In this document: piece by piece, positions 1,020 through 14,294 of the stretch
Layout of the letters: every line of letters starts with the position of its first letter
Numbering within the stretch: position 1 is the stretch's first letter
Origin: Chitinophaga pinensis
Lineage (GTDB): Bacteria > Bacteroidota > Bacteroidia > Chitinophagales > Chitinophagaceae
Direction: 5' to 3'
NCBI GenBank assembly: GCA_943372605.1
Contig: CALRZI010000015.1
Span: 2,432-66,431 of the forward strand
Length of the DNA stretch: 64,000 nucleotides
Notes under the pieces: generated by a model
The model's database searches: none
Told to the model about the DNA's origin: nothing
Seen by the model: the letters and a program-made list of their open reading frames with translations, nothing else
Program-made: the position numbers and the translations under genes

Positions 1020-3128
1020 TTATGCGAACTGTATATCATCTACAAACGGCATTCGTCTGAAACGCTTTCCTGTTGCAGCGAACAGGGCATTGGCCAATGC
1101 TGGTGCAATTGGCGGCAATCCTGGTTCACCCAATCCAGTCGGGTTTTCTTCAGAAGGCACGAATGCTACTTCCACATCCAATGGTGTACTGCGCATTTTC
1201 ACAAAATTATAAGAGCCGAAATTGGTTTGTACCGCCGCACCATCTTTGAAAGTAAGTTTGGTAAACATAGCATGACCAAGTCCATCTACTACCGCACCCT
1301 GCACCTGATTTTCTGCGCCACTCAGGTTCACTACTTTTCCGCAATGCACGGCGCAATACACTTTGGTTATTTTGGGCTTGCCATTTTCCATCTTTAATTC
1401 TACCACCTGTGCCACATAACTATTAAAGGAAAACCATGTTGAAAATCCACGGTATGTATTGGGTGATGACTTACCCCAGTTACTGATTTTAGCAACCAGT
1501 TCTATAACACTGATAAATTTATCAGCATCATAGGCCAACCTGCCGACGGGTTGTTCCTTGGCTTTCTTCAGTAACTCAAGACGTAATGCTACCGGATCTT
1601 TTTTCAGTTCTGTTGCCACTTCATCCATAAAACATTCATTGGCAAATGCCTGCACATTATGTGTTGGTGCGCGCCATGGGCCAGTGGGAATATTGGTGGG
1701 TAAGCTATGGCTTTCTATGCGCAGGTTTTTCAAAGCACCGGCCGGATAGGTATCCGGACTTCTTCCATTACTTAAACAGACAAATGACTGGTGCCAGGCT
1801 TCCAGGTTACCATCTTTGATCGCTGCTTTAAAACGAAACATTCCGCTGGCACGATAAAAATCATTCTGCATATCATCTTCACGCGTCCACTGCACCTGTA
1901 CCGGACATTGTGCTGCCTGAGAAATCAATGCTGCTTCTATTCCGTTATCGGGTCTTAATTTTCTTCCGAATCCTCCACCCTGTCTGGGTAATCCGAGGGT
2001 TACATTTGCCACAGGAATATTCAGTTCTCTTGCTACTGATGTTACTAGGTTTTGCGGCACTTGTGTTGGTCCATACAACTCAGCTTTTCCGTCGCGTACA
2101 TCTGCATAAAAATTCAGGGGTTCCATTTGTGCGTGAGATAATACAGGCACTTCATAATATACATCGAGCAGTTTGGTTGCTGCTGACATCGCCGCGTCTA
2201 CATCTCCATCATTACGATTGGGTGTGGCTGCCGGTTTACTCAATAATTCCTTAAATACTTTTTTATGATCGGTGGTACTTTCCAACTTCGATGCATCTTC
2301 CCAATTTATTTTCAATGCCGCTCTTCCTTTGATGGCGGACCATGTTGATGTTGCAAGAACAGCTACGCTGCTTTTAACCTGTACTACTTTTTTCACACCT
2401 GTTACTTTCAAAGCAGCGCTATCATCAAACGACTGTAATTTTTTCCCATGTGCCGGTGGTCGTGCCACTACTGCGAATAACATTCCTTCTCTTCTTGTAT
2501 CAATTCCAAAAAGTGGTTTTCCTGTTACAATAGCTTGCGCATCTACATCTTTTACACGTGTTCCGATGATTGTAAACTCTTTCGGATCTTTTAAAGGAAT
2601 ATTGGCAGGCACAGGCATGGAAGCCGCTTTGGTAGCCAATTCACCGAAAGCTATTTTCTTACCAGATGTTTTATTCACTACAAAACCATTCTCTGCATAA
2701 CAGTCGGCAGCAGCAACACCCCAGGTATCGGCTGCTGCTGCAATTAATAATACCCTCGCCGTAGCACCTGCTTGTCGGAGCGGTGTATAACGACTCCTGA
2801 TAGCACCACTTCCGCCAGTTGTCTGGCTGCCATATTTAGCATCCAATGGTGCAATTTCTACCTGAATTTTTTTCCAATCCACATTCATTTCTTCTGCAAT
2901 CAGCATTACCAATGATGTTTTTACGCCCTGACCAATTTCAGGATTGGGCGACATCATTGTAATAGTGCCATCAGGTGAAATTTTGATATAGGCATTTGGT
3001 GAAAATGGCGTTCCATCTAATTCCTGTTTTTCATCATTACCCAATGTTGAAAAACCGACCAGCATACCACCACCGGCAATCATGCTGACCCTCAGAAAGT
3101 TTCTTCTTGATACTGATGGTGTACTCAT
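1020..3128 (-). CDS. Xanthine oxidase family molybdopterin-binding subunit (IorB-like), paralog 1
   Basis: N-terminal SRRNFL twin-arginine motif; EIGQG, TGGS, GGGFGRK and C-terminal GLGEPGLPP..ALANA motifs. Confidence 0.92.
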   Translation of the reverse strand: MSTPSVSRRNFLRVSMIAGGGMLVGFSTLGNDEKQELDGTPFSPNAYIKISPDGTITMMSPNPEIGQGVKTSLVMLIAEEMNVDWKKIQVEIAPLDAKYGSQTTGGSGAIRSRYTPLRQAGATARVLLIAAAADTWGVAAADCYAENGFVVNKTSGKKIAFGELATKAASMPVPANIPLKDPKEFTIIGTRVKDVDAQAIVTGKPLFGIDTRREGMLFAVVARPPAHGKKLQSFDDSAALKVTGVKKVVQVKSSVAVLATSTWSAIKGRAALKINWEDASKLESTTDHKKVFKELLSKPAATPNRNDGDVDAAMSAATKLLDVYYEVPVLSHAQMEPLNFYADVRDGKAELYGPTQVPQNLVTSVARELNIPVANVTLGLPRQGGGFGRKLRPDNGIEAALISQAAQCPVQVQWTREDDMQNDFYRASGMFRFKAAIKDGNLEAWHQSFVCLSNGRSPDTYPAGALKNLRIESHSLPTNIPTGPWRAPTHNVQAFANECFMDEVATELKKDPVALRLELLKKAKEQPVGRLAYDADKFISVIELVAKISNWGKSSPNTYRGFSTWFSFNSYVAQVVELKMENGKPKITKVYCAVHCGKVVNLSGAENQVQGAVVDGLGHAMFTKLTFKDGAAVQTNFGSYNFVKMRSTPLDVEVAFVPSEENPTGLGEPGLPPIAPALANALFAATGKRFRRMPFVDDIQFA

Positions 3129-3589
3129 AATTTACCTCCTTTTGATACAGCCATGTGAATGGCTTTGCGTATACGTACATTGGTTCCGCAACGGCAGATA
3201 TTGGTAATAGTAGAATCAATTTCTTCGTCGGTTGGCTTGGGATTTTTTTTCAGCAATGCTACTGCAGCCATGATCTGACCAGACTGGCAATACCCGCACT
3301 GGGCCACATCCATCTCTACCCACGCCTGCTGTACCGGATGATCTCCTTTCTCACTCAACCCTTCAATCGTAACAACTTTTCCGGCACCAACACCTGCAAC
3401 AGGAAACTGGCAGGAACGTATAGGGTTACCATTGTAATGTATGGTGCAGGCACCACACTGTGCCACACCACAACCATATTTAGTTCCAACAAGGTTTAAC
3501 TGATCGCGTAATACCCAAAGCAATGGTGTATCGGCATCTGCTTCTACTGATACCTGTTTGTTGTTGACGGTAAAATTATACTTCGGCAT
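3125..3589 (-). CDS. (2Fe-2S)-binding small subunit (IorA-like), paralog 1
   Basis: [25 protein letters not shown] and CRCGT Fe-S motifs; stop overlaps the IorB start. Confidence 0.93.
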   Translation of the reverse strand: MPKYNFTVNNKQVSVEADADTPLLWVLRDQLNLVGTKYGCGVAQCGACTIHYNGNPIRSCQFPVAGVGAGKVVTIEGLSEKGDHPVQQAWVEMDVAQCGYCQSGQIMAAVALLKKNPKPTDEEIDSTITNICRCGTNVRIRKAIHMAVSKGGKL

Positions 3590-3727
3590 ATGGAAGATGG
3601 ATTTATTAGTGAATGGTAAACTAAGTATTATCTCAGAGAAAGAAAAGCCAAATGACTAAAAATCGGTCAATGGCTTTTGAAAACAAGTCATCGGTAAAAC
3701 TAAAGAGCCTGTTACTATAATCTGTCA

Positions 3728-4639
3728 TCATATATGACGACCACCTTTCATTACATTAAACACATGTAATATATGTGGAAACAATGCGTCCAACGTTTCA
3801 TTTACTCCTTTTACGGAACCAGGCAGTGTAATAACAAGGCTGTTTTTTACATACCCTGCAACACCTCTTGATAACATGGCATATGGTGTACGCTGCTGCC
3901 CATAGTTTCTAGCTGTTTCCATAATACCGGGAACTATCCTGTCCAGTAAAGGTTCAATAGCATCGGGTGTTACATCTCTGGGCGACAAGCCGGTTCCGCC
4001 AGTAAACAATATGAGGTTATACCCTTGTTCTGCATATGACTTTATCTGATCCTGTATATGTTGTATATCGTCTGGAATGATCTTGTAAGCTGAAACTTTC
4101 ACACCCAGTTGCTCCATTTTTTGCACAATGGTTTTGCCGGAAACATCTTCTTTTTCTCCGGCCGAGACTGTATCGGAACAAACAATCACAGCACAGTTTA
4201 ATGCGCTCGCATCAACAGGTAAATGGTCTGACTTACCTCCTTTCTTCTGTTCCAGCCTGATATTTGATATTTCTACACCTTTATCCAATGGCTTCAGCAT
4301 ATCGTACATGGTTAGTGCAGTTACCGAAGCCCCATGCATGGCTTCCACTTCAACACCGGTCTTATAAATAGTATGTACTTCTACTGTAATGAGAATACTG
4401 AGTCCGGTTATTTCGTGTTTAATCGCTGCATATTCTATAGGCAGAGGATGACAATCTGGAATTACATCACTGGTTTTTTTGATGGCCAGTAAACCAGCGG
4501 CCCGTGAAAATTCAAATACATCGCCTTTGGGCACTTGTCTGTTACGGATGGCATCAATTGTCTCCTGTTTTGACACAGTTAATGTGGCACTGGCTATTGC
4601 CTGCCGAAGGGTATTTGATTTTGATGTTATATCAACCAT
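3728..4639 (-). CDS. moaCB: Bifunctional MoaC / MogA-MoaB-domain molybdenum cofactor biosynthesis protein
   Basis: MVDIT start, IPDCHPLP and TGVEVEAM (MoaC), then GGTGLSPRDVTP and TLPGS (MogA/MoaB); ORF track starts at 4660, ATG 4639 preferred. Confidence 0.9.
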   Translation of the reverse strand: MVDITSKSNTLRQAIASATLTVSKQETIDAIRNRQVPKGDVFEFSRAAGLLAIKKTSDVIPDCHPLPIEYAAIKHEITGLSILITVEVHTIYKTGVEVEAMHGASVTALTMYDMLKPLDKGVEISNIRLEQKKGGKSDHLPVDASALNCAVIVCSDTVSAGEKEDVSGKTIVQKMEQLGVKVSAYKIIPDDIQHIQDQIKSYAEQGYNLILFTGGTGLSPRDVTPDAIEPLLDRIVPGIMETARNYGQQRTPYAMLSRGVAGYVKNSLVITLPGSVKGVNETLDALFPHILHVFNVMKGGRHI

Positions 4640-4641
4640 AA

Positions 4642-5085
4642 TTATTGATTCATTTTCCACTGATGTGTATTGTCTTCAAACAACTCTGCTCCCCATACAG
4701 GAAGTTCGGCTTTAATTGTTTCTACCAGTTCAGTACAGGCTTCCATAGCGGCTTTGCGATGCGGTGCTGATGTAAACACAAACAAACATATTTCTCCAGC
4801 CTGTACTCTCCCAAGACTGTGGTACACGTGCATACAGGTTAAATTATACTTTTCAAAAATCGCCTCCCTGATCTCATGCATTTTCTGCAATGCCATTTCT
4901 TCATAAGCAGTATATTCTATCGCTGCAACTTTCTTTCCATTGATCTCATCGGCGCGAACCTGTCCTAGAAAAATGCTATGCCCGCCTATTCCTGTTTTGG
5001 AACTGTGCTTTTGAATATCTGCTGCTATAAATGGTGCAGCTATTGCTCCCTGAATAAATATATTTTTTGGCTTCCCCTCTTTCAT
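4642..5085 (-). CDS. moaE: Molybdopterin synthase catalytic subunit
   Basis: IFLGQVR, IEYTAY, HSLGRV..GE, SAPHRKAA, KAELPVW motifs; ATG 5085 follows the moeB stop. Confidence 0.9.
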   Translation of the reverse strand: MKEGKPKNIFIQGAIAAPFIAADIQKHSSKTGIGGHSIFLGQVRADEINGKKVAAIEYTAYEEMALQKMHEIREAIFEKYNLTCMHVYHSLGRVQAGEICLFVFTSAPHRKAAMEACTELVETIKAELPVWGAELFEDNTHQWKMNQ

Positions 5086-5086
5086 A

Positions 5087-6211
5087 TCATTTCTTTTGAC
5101 GAAAATTTTTCCAGGCAACAATACCGCCCTGTAAGCTATACATGGTTTTAGCATTACCCAACTGTTCAGATAATAACTGTACAGCCTGCTGACTTCTTTT
5201 ACCTGACTGACAAAATACAACAACTGTATCATTTTTTAGTTGTCCATATTCCGTCTTAATCTTTACCAGTGGTATATTGTGGTGCTGAAATTCATCCACG
5301 ATGGGTGTTTCATGTAATTCTCTTACATCTACCACATCTATATTGTCTTGTTGAATTAACTGATCAAATGCATAGGCATCAATTTCATTTACCGGAACAG
5401 GCGATGTGCAAAGCCATGCATAATCTGTTTTTCTGAATGCTTCTTCCGTTTGCGGTATCAGCAATGCTGTATCTTTTCTTGCTGTAATCCTTAGTGTATA
5501 CAACTGGTTGGTCAGGATATTATATGTAAGCAACTGGTTGATCAATGAAGTGCCAAGACCTGTGATGAGTTTGATGGTTTCACTTGCCTGCATGGAACCA
5601 ATCATTCCGGGTAATACCCCTAGCACACCCGCATCCGCACAATTCAATATTTCATTTTCTTTTGGCGGCTCCGGGAACAGGTCGCGGTAATTAGATGATT
5701 GCTCTTCTTTTTCCAGTGAATAATTAAAAACAGCCACCTGTCCTTCAAATCTTGAAACAGCACCATAAACCAATACTTTCTTCATCAGAACGCAGGCATC
5801 ATTGATCATATACCTTGTAGCAAAATTGTCGGTACCGTCAATAATAATATCAAATGAAGATAAGAGTGTCAGTAAATTTTCAGTAGTAGCATACTCAGGG
5901 AATGATGTGATGGTGATTTCAGGATTTATCTTCTTTAAATGAGTTGCTGCTGTTACTGCTTTGTTTTTTCCAATATCATTGGTACTAAATAACACCTGCC
6001 TGTGCAGATTGTCGAGCGAAACTGTATCCCCATCTACGATACCAATGGTTCCTACACCAGCGGCTGCCAGGTATTGCAAAGCAGGACAGCCCAAGCCTCC
6101 TGCACCGATTACCAATACGCTTGCTGCTATCAGTTGCTGCTGCCCTTTTTCACCAAATCCTGGCAGGATCATCTGGCGCTGGTATCGCTCATATGAACTA
6201 TTGTTTTGCAT
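5087..6211 (-). CDS. moeB: MoeB/ThiF adenylyltransferase fused to a rhodanese domain (MoeZ-like)
   Basis: RYQRQ, GAGGLG, NLHRQ, DGTDNF motifs; C-terminal FCQSGKRS and LQGGI rhodanese; ATG 6211 preferred over track start 6280. Confidence 0.9.
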   Translation of the reverse strand: MQNNSSYERYQRQMILPGFGEKGQQQLIAASVLVIGAGGLGCPALQYLAAAGVGTIGIVDGDTVSLDNLHRQVLFSTNDIGKNKAVTAATHLKKINPEITITSFPEYATTENLLTLLSSFDIIIDGTDNFATRYMINDACVLMKKVLVYGAVSRFEGQVAVFNYSLEKEEQSSNYRDLFPEPPKENEILNCADAGVLGVLPGMIGSMQASETIKLITGLGTSLINQLLTYNILTNQLYTLRITARKDTALLIPQTEEAFRKTDYAWLCTSPVPVNEIDAYAFDQLIQQDNIDVVDVRELHETPIVDEFQHHNIPLVKIKTEYGQLKNDTVVVFCQSGKRSQQAVQLLSEQLGNAKTMYSLQGGIVAWKNFRQKK

Positions 6212-6212
6212 A

Positions 6213-6458
6213 TTATCCTCCTGAAAATGGCGGCAACAAGGCCACAATACTGTTTTCAGATAAAATGGTATTGCCAGCAATCATCTCCTGGTTAACAGCT
6301 ATTACGTATTTCGATTGAGCCAATGCCGGGAATTGTTGATGCAGTTCAGCTATCAATGATGCCGTATCAACACGCCCTTCTACCTCCAATTCTTTTGAAC
6401 CGACTGTTTCTGCTAATTGACCAAATAAAAGAATTTTCATTTTCATTCTATTCAACAC
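6213..6458 (-). CDS. moaD: MoaD/ThiS sulfur carrier
   Basis: 81 aa, IAVNQE and C-terminal LLPPFSGG. Confidence 0.92.
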   Translation of the reverse strand: MLNRMKMKILLFGQLAETVGSKELEVEGRVDTASLIAELHQQFPALAQSKYVIAVNQEMIAGNTILSENSIVALLPPFSGG

Positions 6459-6473
6459 TTGAGACTTTCTTTG

Positions 6474-7220
6474 TTAAGCCGATGTAAATAACAATTTATA
6501 TGCAGCCACCGCTAAAACAAGTGCCAGCACTTTTTTCATTACAGTTTGTCTGAATTTCATAGAGCCAAAATAGGCCCCCGCAATTCCGCCCGCAAATGCA
6601 ACAGCAACATACACAAACATATCGCTGCTGAATTGAATACCATTTGTCAATTGCCCCATCAATCCAGATGCTGAATTTACAAAAATAAACAGGGCACTGA
6701 TGGCTGCTGTTTGTTTTTGATCTGTCCAGTTAAAGAATATCAACAAAGGCGAGAGAATAATTCCACCTCCAATACCAATCATTCCCGACAATAAGCCTAT
6801 CACCCCTCCCATCAGCAAGGCACCTGAAAAATGAGTCGGTTTCTGTTCCTGTGAAGTATTTTTTGTGGGGATCAGTAAACGGATTACAGAAAAGATCAGC
6901 AGCAAGCCCAGTATTTTTTTATAGATCGTTGCATCAATACTAACCAATCCACCTACAAATGCCATGGGTACTGATGCCAATGCCAACGGAAAAAATACTT
7001 TCCATACAAAATGTTTACCCCGATAAAATTGCAGAAAAGCAGTTAGCGATACAAACAGGTTCAATAATAATGCTGTAGGCTTCATTACTGCTGGCGCTAG
7101 GCTGAACAATGCCATTAATGCCAGGTATCCGCTGGCACCACCATGCCCCACTGAGGCATAGAGAAATGCAACTACAAGTAATAAAGTACAAAATAAAAAC
7201 AGGCTATCCATGTACATCAT
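6474..7220 (-). CDS. TauE/SafE (TSUP) family membrane transporter
   Basis: Highly hydrophobic; repeated GHGGA and GIGGGI motifs characteristic of TSUP. Confidence 0.85.
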   Translation of the reverse strand: MMYMDSLFLFCTLLLVVAFLYASVGHGGASGYLALMALFSLAPAVMKPTALLLNLFVSLTAFLQFYRGKHFVWKVFFPLALASVPMAFVGGLVSIDATIYKKILGLLLIFSVIRLLIPTKNTSQEQKPTHFSGALLMGGVIGLLSGMIGIGGGIILSPLLIFFNWTDQKQTAAISALFIFVNSASGLMGQLTNGIQFSSDMFVYVAVAFAGGIAGAYFGSMKFRQTVMKKVLALVLAVAAYKLLFTSA

Positions 7221-8404
7221 TAAACGGGTAAAAGATGAATACTGACCAGCTCTCCTTCTTCACTAACCGTTATATCCTCTCCAATTTCAATTAAACAGTT
7301 GGCCCTTGCAAATGAATGCATCCTGTATGATTCCTGCGCGCCAAGAGGTAATACGGTATGACCATCATACAATCCTTTTAAAAAGTGGGTAAGTCCTGAA
7401 GGCTTTTGATACGATTTAGCCAGTGGCACCTGTTTAACCAACAATCCTTTCTCTCCACGAATCATGTTAGCGATAACAGGCAATACATACATATAAAAAC
7501 AGGTAAGCACAGATGAGGGATTACCCGGCAATCCAAACACCAGCTTCGATTCTTTTGTTCCAAAGAAAAGTGGTTTACCTGGTCTTTGTTTTAGTTTATG
7601 GAACCGTGTAGTGATGCCACATCGTGTTGCTGCTGCTACCACAAAATCATAATCGCCCACACTTACGCCTCCCGTTAATAAAACAAGATCAGTTTGTATT
7701 ATTGCATGTTCCAGTTCATTTATCAGCCTGTCTAATATGTCCGGCACTTGTACCACATTAATCTGTCTGACGCCCATTTGTTTCAAAACAGCCGTTAAAG
7801 CAAATGAATTAGAATCATATACCTGTCCATACGCCAAAGGATGACCGGGTGTTTGTAATTCGTTACCGGTTATGATGATGGTAACAGAAGGGGGTGGAAA
7901 TACACTTACTTCTGCTATACCCATTCCTGCCAGGAAACCAATAGCAGCGGGTGTTAAGATGGTGTTTGCTGACAATGCAAGTTCGCCGGTTTTAATTTCC
8001 GATCCTTTCAAACGCACATTGTTACCCTGTTTCAACTGTTCATCATGAATATGTAACTGGCCATTTACGACATTGGTCTTCTCCTGCATCACAACTGTAT
8101 CAGCACCATTCGGCACTGCAGCACCTGTAAAAATGCGAACTGCTGTTTTAAGACCGATCGTCTGTTCATGATTACTACCGGCAGCCATTTCTCCTTTAAT
8201 CTGCAAAACGGAATTGTGCTGCCAGTCTGCAAAAGAAAAAGCATAACCATCCATTGATGACTGGGAATAAGCAGGTATATCAAGCGGGGCAACTATATCA
8301 GCCGCCAGTCTATAACCAATAGCATCCTGTAGTTTTATATAAACAGGCGGTAAGGTTGTAACATATTGCTGAATTATTTCTCTGGCTTCCGATACGCTGA
8401 TCAT
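7220..8404 (-). CDS. moeA: Molybdopterin molybdenumtransferase (gephyrin-like)
   Basis: SSMDGYA, RIFTGA.VP.GAD.VVMQE, TGNEL, TGGVSVGDYD, GLPGNP motifs. Confidence 0.95.
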   Translation of the reverse strand: MISVSEAREIIQQYVTTLPPVYIKLQDAIGYRLAADIVAPLDIPAYSQSSMDGYAFSFADWQHNSVLQIKGEMAAGSNHEQTIGLKTAVRIFTGAAVPNGADTVVMQEKTNVVNGQLHIHDEQLKQGNNVRLKGSEIKTGELALSANTILTPAAIGFLAGMGIAEVSVFPPPSVTIIITGNELQTPGHPLAYGQVYDSNSFALTAVLKQMGVRQINVVQVPDILDRLINELEHAIIQTDLVLLTGGVSVGDYDFVVAAATRCGITTRFHKLKQRPGKPLFFGTKESKLVFGLPGNPSSVLTCFYMYVLPVIANMIRGEKGLLVKQVPLAKSYQKPSGLTHFLKGLYDGHTVLPLGAQESYRMHSFARANCLIEIGEDITVSEEGELVSIHLLPV

Positions 8405-8432
8405 GGTCTGTCAAAAAATTTTCTAGTATGTA

Positions 8433-9413
8433 TTAGCCACCAATAGTGATCATACTTCTGTTTTGAATAATATCGGCCTGTAACTGTTCATAATCCTGGG
8501 TAAACTGTCCGCCCAATTGCGCTGCTTTTGTTGATATGGATTGATGAATCAGTGGCAATACGGCTTCTCCGTTTCTCAGCGGCGTTAATAAATCAACTTC
8601 ATCTTTTGAAAACAAGCAATTCTTCATTTTGCCATCAGCCGTTAAACGGATGCGGTTACAGTCGCCACAGAAATGAGCGCTCATGGTACTGATTACTGCA
8701 AATGTTCCCTGATGACCCGGTATCATAAATTTCTTGGCAGTATCATTTTTTTCTGCCTGCAACGGAATGAAATCATACTGTTCTGCAACAACAGTTAATA
8801 TTTCTTCCAGTGTAAATACTTTATTGCTTGTCCAGCGGTTACCACTAAAAGGCATGAACTCTATAAAGCGCACATGCAGTGGCAGGTCTTTTGTCCATTC
8901 AATAAAATCAATGATCTCATTGTCATTCACACCACGCATCACCACCACATTCACCTTGGTATGAAACCCATGGGTAATCATGAGTTCAATATTTTTCTGA
9001 ACAATAGTAAACTGGTCTCTTTTTGTGAGCAGTTGAAACTTCTCCGCCTGTAAAGTATCCAAACTGATATTAACAGATTGCACATCAGCTTCCTTTAATA
9101 CTTCTACAAAATCATGCAATCTTGTTCCGTTGGTAGTAAGTGTTAATGTAACCGGTAATTGCGCGAGTCGCCTGATGATTTCTTTCGCATCTTTTCTTAC
9201 CAGCGGCTCACCACCAGTGAGTCTGATTTTGGTTACCCCCTGACTTACAAATAATTTTGCCAGCTCCTCAATTTCATCCACCTGCATCAGTTGTTGTGCC
9301 GAAGCAAAATCATATTCATCTTCTGGCATACAATAAAAGCAACGGAGATTGCAGTTATCGGTCAGTGATATCCGTAAATAATTGTGTATTCTATGATGCT
9401 TGTCTACAATCAT
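8433..9413 (-). CDS. moaA: GTP 3',8-cyclase
   Basis: YLRISLTDNCNLRCFYC radical SAM motif, CGDCNRIR...C second cluster, C-terminal IGG. Confidence 0.96.
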   Translation of the reverse strand: MIVDKHHRIHNYLRISLTDNCNLRCFYCMPEDEYDFASAQQLMQVDEIEELAKLFVSQGVTKIRLTGGEPLVRKDAKEIIRRLAQLPVTLTLTTNGTRLHDFVEVLKEADVQSVNISLDTLQAEKFQLLTKRDQFTIVQKNIELMITHGFHTKVNVVVMRGVNDNEIIDFIEWTKDLPLHVRFIEFMPFSGNRWTSNKVFTLEEILTVVAEQYDFIPLQAEKNDTAKKFMIPGHQGTFAVISTMSAHFCGDCNRIRLTADGKMKNCLFSKDEVDLLTPLRNGEAVLPLIHQSISTKAAQLGGQFTQDYEQLQADIIQNRSMITIGG

Positions 9414-9417
9414 GCTT

Positions 9418-10002
9418 TTATTGTTTAATCAATCGCTCATAATCTTCTTCTGTATCAATATCAATAGCTCCAAGCGGAAAGTTAACCAATCCAACCCGAT
9501 GCTGGTCTTTATTTAACAACTGTCTTGCGCCTTTATCACCTTTCAGCTCCAGTAATTCCGGAAACAAGCTCCGATGAAACAATACGGGAGTTCCTATTGT
9601 ATCGGCGTAGGTACAGGCAATAACCGGTTGATTTGTTTTTTGATGAGCAACTATCATCTCGTTAAACAGATCAACAGAAACATAAGGCTGGTCACACACG
9701 GCAATGATCACTGTTTCTACCCGTGGAAATTCAGTTTGCAATCGTTTAATTCCGGCATGAATAGATGTTGCCATGCCTTCCTGCCAATGATGATTAATAA
9801 CTGTTACAATATTCTCCGTCTCCTTTAAATTATCTTCCTTATTCAACACAACCAGAATAGGTCCTGTTTTCAAATTAGTTGCAGTAGTAATAATGCGCTT
9901 GAGCAATGTCTGGTTATGAAACAACAACTGTTGTTTGGGCTTGCCAAGTCGCTTCGATGCTCCGGCGGCCAATATCAAAACAGCAGTTTCTTTAGTTTGC
10001 AT
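9418..10002 (-). CDS. mocA: Molybdenum cofactor cytidylyltransferase-like NTP transferase
   Basis: ILAAGASKRLG.PKQ, GMATSI, CDQP, GDKGAR, DIDTEEDY motifs; next to xdhC. Confidence 0.8.
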   Translation of the reverse strand: MQTKETAVLILAAGASKRLGKPKQQLLFHNQTLLKRIITTATNLKTGPILVVLNKEDNLKETENIVTVINHHWQEGMATSIHAGIKRLQTEFPRVETVIIAVCDQPYVSVDLFNEMIVAHQKTNQPVIACTYADTIGTPVLFHRSLFPELLELKGDKGARQLLNKDQHRVGLVNFPLGAIDIDTEEDYERLIKQ

Positions 10003-10009
10003 AGCTTAT

Positions 10010-11176
10010 TCAGACAGATGATGAAGATGTTTCAGTTTTAATAACCAAATCGGCGCGACGGTGTATCGCATCTGTCTTTTCACGTAAAGGCAGCGAATTT
10101 GACGATGTAAGTTTCGCCTGTATTTCAGCTATAACAGATATAGCAATCTCTTCTGCTGTTTCAGCGCCAATATTCAACCCTACCGGTCCGTGAATAGCAT
10201 CCTGTTGTTCCTGCGACAATTGAATTCCTTTCTCTGCCAGATCATCCATCATCATACGCATTTTCTTGTGTGGCCCCAATACCCCAATATACCGAACTGC
10301 CTTATTCAATAATGCCTTCAATATCGCCAGATCGTAATTGTAATTGTGCGACATCAACACAAACACTGTCCGGCTGTCTATGATTACATGCTCAAGAATA
10401 TGATCAGCTTTTGCATGTACTACCATGCAGGAGGGCATTGGAAATCTTTCTTTACTGGCATACATGGGTCTGCCATCAATTACGGTTGACTGCCATCCTA
10501 TAATTTCTGCCATTCTCACAAGGGGTATCACATCATTACCGGCTCCTATAATAATAAGTGATACGGGTGGTTGAATAAATTCAGCAAATACAACCAGTTC
10601 TTGCTCCCCATCCACATACTTACTGAATGAAGATTTCTGCTGCTCCATTACCAGTTTTATTTCATGCTGTAGTCTTGTTGTACCCAACACAGGTATCTCA
10701 CCAAACTCCTCTCCTTGTTCTGTAAATAAAAAGCAGGAACCATATTGCGGTGTTCTTTTATCCTGGATGGAAAACAAAGTAAGCAGTACAGATTTTTGTC
10801 TTGATGCGGTAGCTTTCTCTAGCAAATCAACAATAGCTTCTCCTCTTTCACCCTGTAATGGCTCTATCAATACCTGGATCACGCCCTGACAACCCAGTCC
10901 CATTCCAAATTTCGCATCGTCATCATCAGCAGTATCATAGGTTACCAGCATGGGTTTTCCGGAAAGTATTACGTGTAATGCTTTCCGGAAAGCATCTCCT
11001 TCCAAACATCCCCCACTGATAGAACCGGTTAATTCTGCTGCTTCGGTAATCAGCATTCTGGCGCCGGGTCTTCTGTAAGAGGAACCTTCTACATGCACCA
11101 CAGTTGCCAGTGCCGTTTTTCTACCGGCAGCTATTGCTTGCTGGTATGCTTTTATGATCGCAACTATTTCGTGCAT
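10010..11176 (-). CDS. xdhC: XdhC/CoxI family molybdoenzyme maturation factor
   Basis: ALATVV..GSSYRRPGA, GSISGGCLE, GLGCQG, YIGVLG, PVGLNIGAETAEEIA motifs. Confidence 0.92.
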   Translation of the reverse strand: MHEIVAIIKAYQQAIAAGRKTALATVVHVEGSSYRRPGARMLITEAAELTGSISGGCLEGDAFRKALHVILSGKPMLVTYDTADDDDAKFGMGLGCQGVIQVLIEPLQGERGEAIVDLLEKATASRQKSVLLTLFSIQDKRTPQYGSCFLFTEQGEEFGEIPVLGTTRLQHEIKLVMEQQKSSFSKYVDGEQELVVFAEFIQPPVSLIIIGAGNDVIPLVRMAEIIGWQSTVIDGRPMYASKERFPMPSCMVVHAKADHILEHVIIDSRTVFVLMSHNYNYDLAILKALLNKAVRYIGVLGPHKKMRMMMDDLAEKGIQLSQEQQDAIHGPVGLNIGAETAEEIAISVIAEIQAKLTSSNSLPLREKTDAIHRRADLVIKTETSSSSV

Positions 11177-11195
11177 AATAATTTCATATACCCAC

Positions 11196-11603
11196 TTACT
11201 TACGCTGCGCTTTTACCATAGCAGGTGTAATGTTGCCCGGGATTTTATTACCCCAACTGTTTTTGATATAATTCAACACATCAGCAATCTGTTCATCATT
11301 CAGGTATTCCTGTGCGGGCATGGCACCCACATATTTTTTACCATTAATGGTTAAACTGGCTGTTGAACCTTTTAATATTACAATGATAAGATCTTTAGCA
11401 GGTCTTTTCATATAATCAGCTTTTACCAAAGGAGGATTTACTTCCGGCATTCCACTACCATTTTCCATATGGCAGTTCTGACAATAGAGACCATACACTT
11501 CTTTTCCTCTTACGATACTTTTTTGTACGTCACTTTGTATAAAACCGCTACTGATCATTACGATTGAAACGATTACTGTTACTGTCAATATTTTTTTAAT
11601 CAT
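11196..11603 (-). CDS. Exported monoheme class I cytochrome c
   Basis: N-terminal hydrophobic signal, single CQNCH heme motif, distal Met in GAMPA. Confidence 0.9.
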   Translation of the reverse strand: MIKKILTVTVIVSIVMISSGFIQSDVQKSIVRGKEVYGLYCQNCHMENGSGMPEVNPPLVKADYMKRPAKDLIIVILKGSTASLTINGKKYVGAMPAQEYLNDEQIADVLNYIKNSWGNKIPGNITPAMVKAQRK

Positions 11604-11631
11604 ACTTGCAAATTATCAAAAAATAAAAAGA

Positions 11632-13788
11632 TCAAACCTTGGCCAGGTCAAATGGTAATTTCCTGATTCGCTTACCTGTTAAATCAAAAATAGCATTGGT
11701 TAAAGCTGGTGTAAATGGAGGCAAGCCAGGCTCTCCCACACCTCCTGCATCTTCATTATTGTCCATAATAAATACTTCGATCGGTGGAATTTCATTGATT
11801 CTTGGCATTCGGTAAGTAGTAAAATTTTTCTCAACGGTTAAGCCGTCTTTGAAATGAATTTCATGATTTGTTGCAGCACCTAATGCCATTACAATAGAGC
11901 CTTCTACCTGAGCACGAACTGTATCGGAATTCACGTACCAGCCACAATCTATAACAGCCCATACTTTATCAATCTTGATTTTTCCGGTGGCATCTTTAGA
12001 TACTTTCACTACCTGCGCAACACTGCTGCTAAAACACTCCGTAATGGCTACGCCATACCCCTGTTTTGGTTTTCGGGTTTTCCATCCAGATACCTGCTCT
12101 ACCTTTTCTAATAATTTCTGACAACGCTCGTTCTTCAGGTATTGTTTTCTGAAAGCCAATGGATCTTTGCCTGCTGCAATGGCAAGCTCATCCATAAAGC
12201 TCTCATATGCAAAACCATTGGTAGATGCATATACCGAACGCCACCACATGATAGGAATCGGTGTTTCAAATGGAATATCGGAGAAACTAATATTTTTGAT
12301 GCTATCTAAATAGTGTGGCTGAAAACCTTCCAGTACACTATCATTGGGAACATCTTTTTTACTTCCCATCCAATGTCCGATATTCTGACCGCACATCCTA
12401 AATTTAACAGCACTGATCTCCCCATTGTTTACTGCGCCCTCAGCTCTGTAACTAACACCCGGACGAAACGGACCTTGCGTCATATCATCTTCACGCGTCC
12501 AGATAACCTGTACAGGTGCGCCTGCTTCTTTTGAAATTAAACAGGCTTCATGTGTATAATCCAAAAATGCTTTTCTGCCAAAGCCTCCTCCAAGAAATGT
12601 CATATTTACGTGTACATTTTCTTTTTTAATCCCCATCTTCTGACTGATATCGCCTTGTACCCAATCAGGCGCCTGAATAGGACCCCATATTTCAATGGAA
12701 TCTCCTTTATAATGTGCCACACAATTCAATGGCTCCATACAAGCATGCGCCTGGTAAGGTGTTTCATAGACCACATCAAGTTTATTTTTCTGCTGTGCCA
12801 ATACAGGGTCAGGATCACCTTGCTTTTTCGCAGACAGTCCTTCTTTGGACTGCAGGTCGGCTTTCATTTTCTTATATATCTCTTCTGTATTCACATATTC
12901 AAAACCTGCATCATCCCACACCACTTTCAACGCTTTTCTACCCTGCATAGCTGCCCAGGTTGAATCTGCTAACACTGCCACTCCTTCCCGATCGGTATCG
13001 AATACTTTCATGGTAACCTTAAAAACCTTCTTTACCCCGGGTATTTTAAGCGTTGCACTATCATCATATGATTTCACTTTACCTCTTAAACGTGGATTGC
13101 GTTCTACCACGGCGTAAAGCATTCCGGGTATTTTTTTATCTATCCCAAAAACGGCTGTACCATTGGTTTTCAAAGGTGTATCCTGACGGGGAAGTGGCTT
13201 ACGGATAAGTTTATAATCCTCTACTTTTTTGAGTTGCACATTTTTAGGTGCTTCCAGCTTTGAAGCATCTACCACCAATTCTCCATAATGCATTTTCTTT
13301 CCTGAAGGGCGATGCGTTACATGTCCGGCTTCTGCAAAACATTCTGTAGCCTGCACACTCCATTTGGCAGCAGCAGCAGCAACCAGCATTTCGCGTGCAC
13401 TGGCACTTAACTTCAATAAGTTCTTATAAGTACCCCGAACAGTTGAGCTACCACCTGTGATCTGATTGCCATACTTGACTGTATCTCCTTTACCGAAAAT
13501 GATATTGACTTCGTTAAGATTCACTTCCAATTCTTCTGCAATCATTTGCGGTATTGCCTGATAAGCACCCTGTCCCATTTCAGCACGATGACATACAATG
13601 GTTACTTTCCCATTGGTATCAATATGTATCCATGAGTTGAGAGATACTCCATAGTTCTCCGCATCTTCACCTTTGATAATCGTAGATGCTTTTGATTCAC
13701 CGGAAAAGTAAAAACCTAACGTAAGCGCAGTGGCGGATAGTCCGGTAGCTCTAATGAATTTTCTTCTTGATATATCTTTTGGTTCCAT
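11632..13788 (-). CDS. Xanthine oxidase family molybdopterin-binding subunit (IorB-like), paralog 2
   Basis: SRRKFI twin-arginine motif; EMGQG, TGGSS, LGGGFGRK, WWRSV, GVGEPGLPP motifs. Confidence 0.92.
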   Translation of the reverse strand: MEPKDISRRKFIRATGLSATALTLGFYFSGESKASTIIKGEDAENYGVSLNSWIHIDTNGKVTIVCHRAEMGQGAYQAIPQMIAEELEVNLNEVNIIFGKGDTVKYGNQITGGSSTVRGTYKNLLKLSASAREMLVAAAAAKWSVQATECFAEAGHVTHRPSGKKMHYGELVVDASKLEAPKNVQLKKVEDYKLIRKPLPRQDTPLKTNGTAVFGIDKKIPGMLYAVVERNPRLRGKVKSYDDSATLKIPGVKKVFKVTMKVFDTDREGVAVLADSTWAAMQGRKALKVVWDDAGFEYVNTEEIYKKMKADLQSKEGLSAKKQGDPDPVLAQQKNKLDVVYETPYQAHACMEPLNCVAHYKGDSIEIWGPIQAPDWVQGDISQKMGIKKENVHVNMTFLGGGFGRKAFLDYTHEACLISKEAGAPVQVIWTREDDMTQGPFRPGVSYRAEGAVNNGEISAVKFRMCGQNIGHWMGSKKDVPNDSVLEGFQPHYLDSIKNISFSDIPFETPIPIMWWRSVYASTNGFAYESFMDELAIAAGKDPLAFRKQYLKNERCQKLLEKVEQVSGWKTRKPKQGYGVAITECFSSSVAQVVKVSKDATGKIKIDKVWAVIDCGWYVNSDTVRAQVEGSIVMALGAATNHEIHFKDGLTVEKNFTTYRMPRINEIPPIEVFIMDNNEDAGGVGEPGLPPFTPALTNAIFDLTGKRIRKLPFDLAKV

Positions 13789-13823
13789 GATGGATCATTG
13801 TTGTGATTGAAAAATGTTTAATA

Positions 13824-14294
13824 TTATCCTTTGGCCGACATTTTTTTGGATGCTTTTTTTATCGCCTCCCGTATTCTTGGATAAGTTCCACATCTGCAAA
13901 TATGTCCTTGCATTGCGGCATCAATATCCGCATCAGTAGGCGATGCTTTCTTTTGTAACAATGCTACGGCTGCCATGATTTGTCCGGATTGACAATAACC
14001 ACATTGAGGCACTTGTTCCTCAATCCATGCTGTTTGAACAGGATGTGTATTATTAGCTGAAAGTCCTTCAATGGTGGTAATTTTTTTGCTACCAACACCC
14101 GCTACCGGCAACTGGCATGATCTTACTGGTAACCCATCTATATGAATGGTACAGGCCCCACAGGCAGCAACGCCACACCCATATTTGGTGCCGGGTAAAT
14201 CGAGATGATCACGCAAGACCCATAATACCGGGGTAGCCGGATCTACCTCTACTTGTTTTTCCTTTCCGTTCACATGTAGTTTAATAGTAGCCAT
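13824..14294 (-). CDS. (2Fe-2S)-binding small subunit (IorA-like), paralog 2
   Basis: [31 protein letters not shown] motifs. Confidence 0.93.

Follow-up and report, generated by a model that had tools for sequence, protein, structure and literature searches.

In reviews published up to 2026, the uptake of molybdenum (Mo) and tungsten (W) by prokaryotes is attributed to ModABC, WtpABC and TupABC only (PMC13144720). A census of 2018 listed 278 of 3683 Mo-utilising bacteria as having no known transporter and suggested the existence of further systems (PMC6147048). It should be noted that the sulfate transport of Escherichia coli also takes molybdate when the concentration is high (PMC2408646). 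Two proteins of the TSUP (TauE/SafE) family are relevant in this context. The TauE homologue TK06_RS10770 of Pseudomonas fluorescens enables E. coli ΔcysA to take up sulfate again (PMC11535334), and the TauE-family protein OsDISMO1 of rice alters the distribution of Mo in the plant and raises the Mo content of yeast (PMC12227400). In the literature searched, no report was found that links a bacterial TSUP, TauE or DUF81 protein to molybdate, to the molybdenum cofactor (Moco) or to moeA. Here we describe a TSUP gene embedded in a Moco gene cluster of Chitinophaga pinensis, on a stretch of 64,000 nucleotides (nt) of contig CALRZI010000015.1 that is called the window throughout. Judging from sequence comparisons, its product is, in our opinion, probably a secondary molybdate importer that is used in place of ModABC.

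The gene is an open reading frame of 248 amino acids (aa) with an ATG start, at positions 6474-7220 of the minus strand. Its product scores 118.2 bits with the Pfam TauE profile PF01925 (cut-off 32.6), over profile positions 4-237 of 237. Membership in the TSUP/TauE-SafE family (TCDB 2.A.102) is thus clear, and it is the proposed molybdate substrate that is new for bacteria. On the minus strand, the moeA stop codon TAA and the ATG of the TSUP gene have one base in common (TAATG); 15 nt separate the TSUP stop from the start of moaD. An earlier note, made from the letters of the window, had called this gene and its 1-nt overlap with the moeA stop, and both calls are exact by open reading frame, Pfam match and junction sequence. 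The same note had placed the gene directly upstream of moaD-moeB-moaE, in agreement with the Pfam matches to MoaD, to MoeB with its rhodanese domain and to MoaE, all on the same strand. The TSUP gene is probably translationally coupled with moeA. NCBIfam has no model specific to the protein, only a weak MamO match, and the cluster names given to it in the ESM Atlas do not go beyond the generic "membrane transporter".

Comparison with the described systems defines what is unusual about this locus. ModABC of the E. coli type has the role that is proposed here for the TSUP protein, sits in or beside Moco clusters and occupies an interchangeable position in collinear operons. However, there is no homology between the two, and the window TSUP is a lone 248-aa permease of the secondary-carrier type, with neither a binding protein nor an ATPase. 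It is a member of none of ModABC, WtpABC and TupABC, and resembles them in function at most. The founding TSUP proteins TauE, SafE and TsaS share with it the family, the arrangement of four plus four transmembrane (TM) segments and the Gly-rich motifs, but not the genomic setting. No sulfonate-catabolism genes, whether for taurine, sulfoacetate or toluenesulfonate, lie near the window TSUP, all of whose neighbours are Moco-synthesis or molybdoenzyme genes. TK06_RS10770 and Ac3H11_578 belong to the same Pfam family and are likewise embedded in a pathway that consumes an imported tetrahedral oxyanion; import has been demonstrated for them by complementation, however, they sit with sulfate-assimilation genes, and their analogue in the present genome is a different paralogue, considered below (PMC11535334). 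OsDISMO1 carries the TauE-family annotation and moves Mo according to mutant ionomics and yeast expression, but it is eukaryotic, is associated with the endoplasmic reticulum and the phloem, has been assigned no direction of transport, and can be likened to the bacterial proteins by family annotation only (PMC12227400).

The earlier note remarked that the window lacks modABC, and the same is true of the genome as a whole, an assembly of 3.9 Mb in 27 contigs with a rated completeness of 100%. The genome-wide search which that note had called for, covering modABC, tupABC and wtpABC, returned no match to TIGR01256 (modA) or TIGR02141 (modB) and not a single SBP_bac_11 protein (PF13531), SBP_bac_11 being the Pfam family of ModA and also of WtpA. 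An intact modABC elsewhere in the genome, which the note had named as one part of what would speak against molybdate uptake by the TSUP protein, is thus missing. Two PBP_like_2 matches were considered as candidates for TupA and rejected, one being a PstS-like protein and the other a LysR regulator. The gene for the PstS-like protein adjoins that of a large TPR protein (L007, G000:C5:89860-93603), and the roughly 1.4 kb examined on each side of this locus contain no ABC permease.

Equally restricted is the set of Mo enzymes. The molybdoenzymes detected genome-wide are the two MoCoBD proteins encoded in the cluster around the TSUP gene, and a search of the genome found no protein of the DMSO-reductase family (PF00384) or the sulfite-oxidase family (PF00174). 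Every Mo-related gene searched for in the genome falls in this one 13-kb cluster, which is the organism's entire Mo economy. Metal uptake is the one function otherwise missing from this self-sufficient module, and the TSUP gene is the sole transporter gene there.

The view that the TSUP protein replaces ModABC is founded on three observations, namely that its clade is confined to genomes with moeA, that it nearly excludes modA, and that the two are swapped in otherwise collinear operons. To establish the first two, 101 genomes of the window's GTDB family, 351 Bacteroidota and 121 Acidobacteriota were searched, with MoeA_N and modA as markers. TSUP was scored as present at E<=1e-20 to the window protein, a threshold reached by none of the genome's own five paralogues. 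In the family sample, 42 genomes are MoeA-positive, and TSUP occurs in 28 of these as against 1 of the 59 MoeA-negative genomes; the lone MoeA-negative carrier is a 72%-complete assembly. The 42 divide into 27 with TSUP only, 10 with modA only, 1 with both and 4 with neither. In the genome with both, the TSUP match is weak (31% identity) and lies on another contig. Fisher's exact test for TSUP against modA in this sample gives p = 7e-6, a value that makes the significance look greater than it is, related genomes not being independent.

The same pattern is found across the phylum. All 64 TSUP carriers among the 351 Bacteroidota are moeA-positive, and TSUP is present in 0 of the 165 moeA-negative genomes. 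The 186 moeA-positive genomes comprise 62 with TSUP only, 89 with modA only, 2 with both and 33 with neither; when one heavily sampled family (f21), all of it with modA, is set aside, the corresponding figures are 62, 36, 2 and 33. In f21, all 76 genomes have modA but only 53 of the 76 have MoeA; a molybdate-binding protein is thus retained by many members that lack the Mo insertase. TSUP and modA alternate, never co-occurring, within eight families (f1, f2, f5, f6, f7, f12, f33 and f39) and also within three genera (g116, g118 and g135), of which g116 has nine genomes with TSUP and one with modA, these being all ten of its MoeA-positive members. Thus, the test proposed in the earlier note, co-occurrence of this TSUP clade with Moco operons lacking modA, yields near-exclusion of modA and confinement to moeA-positive genomes among 351 Bacteroidota.

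Two subsets of the phylum sample were examined further. A clade-profile search of the 33 genomes with neither system produced weak relatives only, at 118 bits or less; a divergent TSUP of the clade is thus not evident in them. No SBP_bac_11 protein is present in 45 of 61 genomes with TSUP only. In the remainder, a modA-like identity of the SBP_bac_11 proteins was considered and rejected, the strong matches being to sulfate Sbp/CysT or to an atypical binding protein. The atypical protein, of about 305 aa and with a ModA-like score of 33-43 bits, adjoins a small gene in three genomes (L119, L120 and L121, in G411, G273 and G351, respectively), and in G273 and G351 a gene for a SoxA-like cytochrome c lies beside that small gene. 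No ABC permease occurs within about 1.5 kb on either side of these loci, and the three genomes rely on TSUP.

Outside Bacteroidota, seven carriers of the clade were found among the 121 Acidobacteriota, all seven MoeA-positive. The modA gene is missing from 6 of the 7, as against 34 of the 98 other MoeA-positive genomes (p = 0.012). Two unpublished genomes without TSUP, G471 and G496, are counted here; their omission changes the comparison to 6/7 against 33/96 and leaves the conclusion as it is.

The third observation comes from gene order. In genus g135, one genome (G273) has the order XdhC-MobA-MoaA-MoeA-TSUP-MoaD-MoeB-MoaE-MoaCB and no modA. Another genome of that genus (G395) has the eight same Moco genes, collinear with those of G273 and 49-86% identical to them at the aa level, but there moeA runs straight into moaD with no TSUP gene between them, and modA-modB-modC lie divergently adjacent to the operon. 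Analogously, two genomes of the window's own family (G035 and G020) have modABC bordering the Moco cluster and lack TSUP. This swap is the pattern expected if one gene takes over another's function.

How often the TSUP gene accompanies Moco genes was assessed by a pattern scan with one genome per species, which returned at least 600 matching stretches, 591 of them encoding a relative. Of the best 80 loci, which were examined, 67 lie within 3 kb of Moco genes, with a moeA match in 61 and a moaD match in 63. The moeA gene in those 61 loci lies nearly always directly upstream of TSUP on the same strand. Represented among the loci are Pedobacter, Daejeonella, Chitinophagaceae, Ferruginibacter, Flavobacteriaceae, Saprospiraceae, Cytophagales and one metagenome-assembled genome (MAG) of Chlorobiota, and the linkage to Moco genes spans Sphingobacteriales, Chitinophagales, Flavobacteriales, Saprospiraceae and Chlorobiota. 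Placement of TSUP beside Moco genes is not a chance neighbourhood. Unlinked copies are found in Spirosomataceae, in Acidobacteriota (Pyrinomonadaceae and Chloracidobacterium) and in one Verrucomicrobiota MAG, and 8 of 20 loci from across the phylum lie among unrelated genes, in genomes that are all MoeA-positive and modA-negative.

An AlphaFold2 (AF2) model built from an 81-sequence alignment (pLDDT 91.7, pTM 0.89) has the architecture of the TSUP family, whose proteins of about 250 aa have eight TM segments in a 4+4 repeat and a Gly-rich motif in the first helix of each repeat. The helices of the first repeat comprise residues 4-23/29-38, 43-67, 73-92 and 97-116, and those of the second 131-148/153-162, 168-191, 199-221 and 225-245. 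TM1 and TM5 are interrupted at Gly-rich loops, G25-H26-G-G28 and G149-I-G-G-G153, respectively. In alignments of the clade, Y21, Y32, N54, P85 and N182 are invariant, and H26 and W165 are present in more than 90% of sequences; the other TSUP paralogues of the genome conserve none of the seven. For the present purpose a "Moco-linked TSUP" clade, which is a proposal and not a curated family, may be delimited by E<=1e-20, invariant Y21/Y32/N54/P85/N182, H26 in more than 90% and occurrence in moeA-positive genomes only, all of which apply to the window protein.

The two Gly-rich helix breaks, lined by Y21, H26, Y32, N54, W165 and N182, form a candidate oxyanion site. Its residues would act as uncharged hydrogen-bond donors near helix ends, which would suit an oxyanion; the oxyanion site of ModA is likewise made of uncharged hydrogen-bond donors. 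A sequence search of the Protein Data Bank (PDB) found no TSUP homologue, and Foldseek against solved structures returned nothing at E<=0.001. In structural comparison, BacA/UppP (PDB 5oon) stands out alone, with a VIA-align Z of 10.9 over 232 of 248 residues, the next Z being 5.0, and a Foldseek TM score of 0.55. BacA binds an oxyanion head group of the phosphate type (pyrophosphate), and its site reportedly lies at re-entrant, broken helices. However, sequence identity to it is 10%, and it works as an enzyme rather than as a carrier; the fold common to BacA and the TSUP model gives no evidence on function or substrate.

The cluster that surrounds the TSUP gene consists of 14 genes on the minus strand (1020-14294, 13.3 kb), with a widest intergenic gap of 138 nt. 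Scans for terminators and promoters across it gave no signal exceeding chance. It opens with a 2Fe-2S small subunit (copy a, Fer2 + Fer2_2, 13824-14294) and an IorB-like Mo subunit of the xanthine-oxidase family (copy a, MoCoBD_1/2, 11632-13788), followed by a monohaem cytochrome c (PF00034, 11196-11603) and an XdhC-type Moco chaperone (XdhC_CoxI + XdhC_C, 10010-11176). The genes for cofactor synthesis are those of a MobA/MocA-like molybdopterin nucleotidyltransferase (PF12804, 9418-10002), the radical SAM protein MoaA (Radical_SAM + Mob_synth_C, 8433-9413) and the molybdenum insertase MoeA (MoeA_N + MoCF_biosynth + MoeA_C, 7220-8404), then, downstream of the TSUP gene, the ThiS-fold sulfur carrier MoaD (PF02597, 6213-6458), a MoeB-type adenylyltransferase with a C-terminal rhodanese domain (ThiF + Rhodanese, 5087-6280), MoaE (PF02391, 4642-5232) and a MoaC-MoaB/Mog fusion (PF01967 + PF00994, 3728-4660). 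A second 2Fe-2S small subunit (copy b, Fer2 + Fer2_2, 3125-3589) and a second Mo subunit of the xanthine-oxidase family (copy b, MoCoBD_1/2, 1020-3128) end the cluster.

The longest open reading frames of moeB and moaE overlap the preceding genes by 68 and 146 nt, respectively, and the Pfam match of MoaE begins at residue 67; the real starts of both genes are probably internal, downstream of the listed ones. A genome of the same GTDB genus (L131, G407:C3:180458-195189) keeps the ten-gene order cytochrome c-XdhC-MobA-MoaA-MoeA-TSUP-MoaD-MoeB-MoaE-MoaCB. Its proteins are only 40-64% identical to those of the window at the aa level, either because the cluster is a separately acquired module or because of a very broad genus.

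Several other explanations of the TSUP gene have to be weighed. The best of them, although unlikely, assigns the protein a different role in Mo metabolism, such as tungstate-specific uptake, efflux or homeostasis of Mo or W, or transport of a cofactor intermediate. Confinement to moeA-positive genomes does fix the link to Moco, but neither the substrate nor the direction, and the direction of transport is open for OsDISMO1 as well (PMC12227400). An accessory or efflux role, however, should lead to co-occurrence with ModABC, not to its replacement; the proposed direction of transport is import. Moreover, the only Mo enzymes present are of the xanthine-oxidase family, which uses Mo and not W and thus counts against a tungstate role; for this reason, the substrate would be molybdate rather than tungstate. 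As for intermediates, Moco is inserted in the cytoplasm before export through the Tat pathway, so that none need cross the membrane.

A sulfur-related function is less plausible still, and we regard it as improbable. It would consist in the import of thiosulfate or sulfate for the relay from the MoeB rhodanese domain to MoaD, or in the export of sulfite. In its favour, moaD and the rhodanese-bearing moeB follow directly downstream of the gene, and the substrates of TSUP members, where studied or inferred, are sulfur oxyanions or sulfonates (PMC5840216, PMC11535334, PMC12227400). A sulfur role nevertheless predicts no link to modA, yet TSUP and modA are almost never found together. Operons with modABC keep XdhC as well as MoeB, the latter at near full length, aligned over about 378 of the 397 residues of the window's MoeB, which should include the rhodanese domain, and they have no TSUP gene; conversely, TSUP is kept in operons without an adjacent moeB (L010, L014 and L017). 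Besides, cysteine desulfurase and rhodanese supply MoaD with sulfur taken from cysteine within the cell, which counts against sulfur import. The earlier note had offered two alternatives for the gene; the first, a non-ABC importer of molybdate or tungstate, is strongly supported by comparative genomics, and the second, sulfur supply or sulfite efflux in aid of MoaD thiocarboxylation or XdhC-dependent sulfuration, is disfavoured.

A further argument against a sulfur role is another TSUP of the genome, one that serves sulfur traffic. In this paralogue, one of six TSUP paralogues in the genome, N-terminal domains of sirohaem synthase (NAD_binding_7 and Sirohm_synth_M) are fused to TauE; the 511-aa protein is encoded on contig C7 (G000, C7:107273-108805, minus strand, corresponding to L125:2271-3806) as the last gene of an operon with the order cysH-cysD-cysN-hexapeptide-repeat acyltransferase-cysK-cobA-cysJ-cysI. 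It has no mutual BLAST match with the Moco-linked TSUP, which in turn has no linkage to cysDN, cysH or cysIJ, the linkage typical of TSUP sulfate importers like TK06_RS10770 and C. glutamicum CysZ. An ABC system of the Sbp/CysP type is lacking in this genome. The fusion is probably the genome's carrier of sulfate or sulfite. The genome thus has two pathway-embedded TSUP proteins, each encoded beside enzymes that consume a tetrahedral oxyanion, which agrees with a specialisation of TSUP clades for different oxyanions.

That the gene encodes a generic anion permease or membrane protein without a specific Mo function, carried along in a mobile Moco cluster, is the least credible proposal: the cluster does seem mobile as a unit, as its conserved order in G407 at 40-64% identity indicates, and TSUP paralogues are numerous, but the copies unlinked to Moco genes still follow the presence of moeA and the absence of modA, the clade's own invariant residues are missing from the genome's paralogues, and a hitch-hiker would not disappear precisely where modABC is present.

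Several points weigh against molybdate import by the TSUP protein as a replacement for ModABC. Specificity for Mo, W or sulfate, and likewise the direction of transport, cannot be read from sequence, and the candidate oxyanion site is derived from alignment and secondary structure. The genomes compared are related, their counts are hence not independent, and kinship is ignored in the statistics. Two Bacteroidota genomes of the phylum sample have both TSUP and modA (G327 and G436, the latter with a weak match), as does one of the Acidobacteriota (G524, with a weak modA). The 33 of 186 moeA-positive Bacteroidota with neither system indicate that other uptake routes exist, and such a route, for instance a SulP-type permease, could serve here too; the genome encodes one ABC binding protein of the Peripla_BP_2 type elsewhere. 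Finally, a Moco riboswitch (RF01055) or another Mo-responsive element was detected neither in the window nor in 19 related loci, which include all the unlinked and non-Bacteroidota ones, and five whole genomes of non-Bacteroidota carriers have no RF01055 match either.

It should be added that G327 (L031, L129), the one clear genome with both systems, has two copies of moeA, and its modA lies on another contig. One of its moeA copies belongs to a small divergent Moco cluster headed by TSUP, which looks like a recently acquired second module.

If the TSUP protein is the importer proposed here, molybdate would be taken from the periplasm by a secondary carrier encoded by a single gene, doing the job of ModABC, and MoeA would then insert it into molybdopterin. 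Co-transcription of the TSUP gene and moeA would let uptake capacity rise and fall together with cofactor synthesis. The cluster would thus constitute a self-sufficient module made up of two Mo enzymes, a complete pathway to Moco and its molybdopterin cytosine dinucleotide (MCD) form, the XdhC chaperone and a metal importer.

With somewhat less confidence, we consider it likely that the whole clade consists of widespread, hitherto unrecognised bacterial molybdate importers, which would replace ModABC in about one third of the Bacteroidota that make Moco, as well as in some Acidobacteriota, Verrucomicrobiota and Chlorobiota, and would fill much of the gap left by genomes with no known transporter. 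By analogy, a function in Mo transport may be common to this clade and OsDISMO1. A TSUP carrier of this kind would fill the transporter gap for a large part of Bacteroidota, a phylum abundant in soils, fresh waters and the sea, where the availability of Mo limits nitrogen and carbon transformations. Thousands of annotations as "sulfite exporter TauE/SafE" would have to be corrected, metabolic models would gain a missing uptake reaction, and engineering would gain a one-gene part for molybdate uptake.

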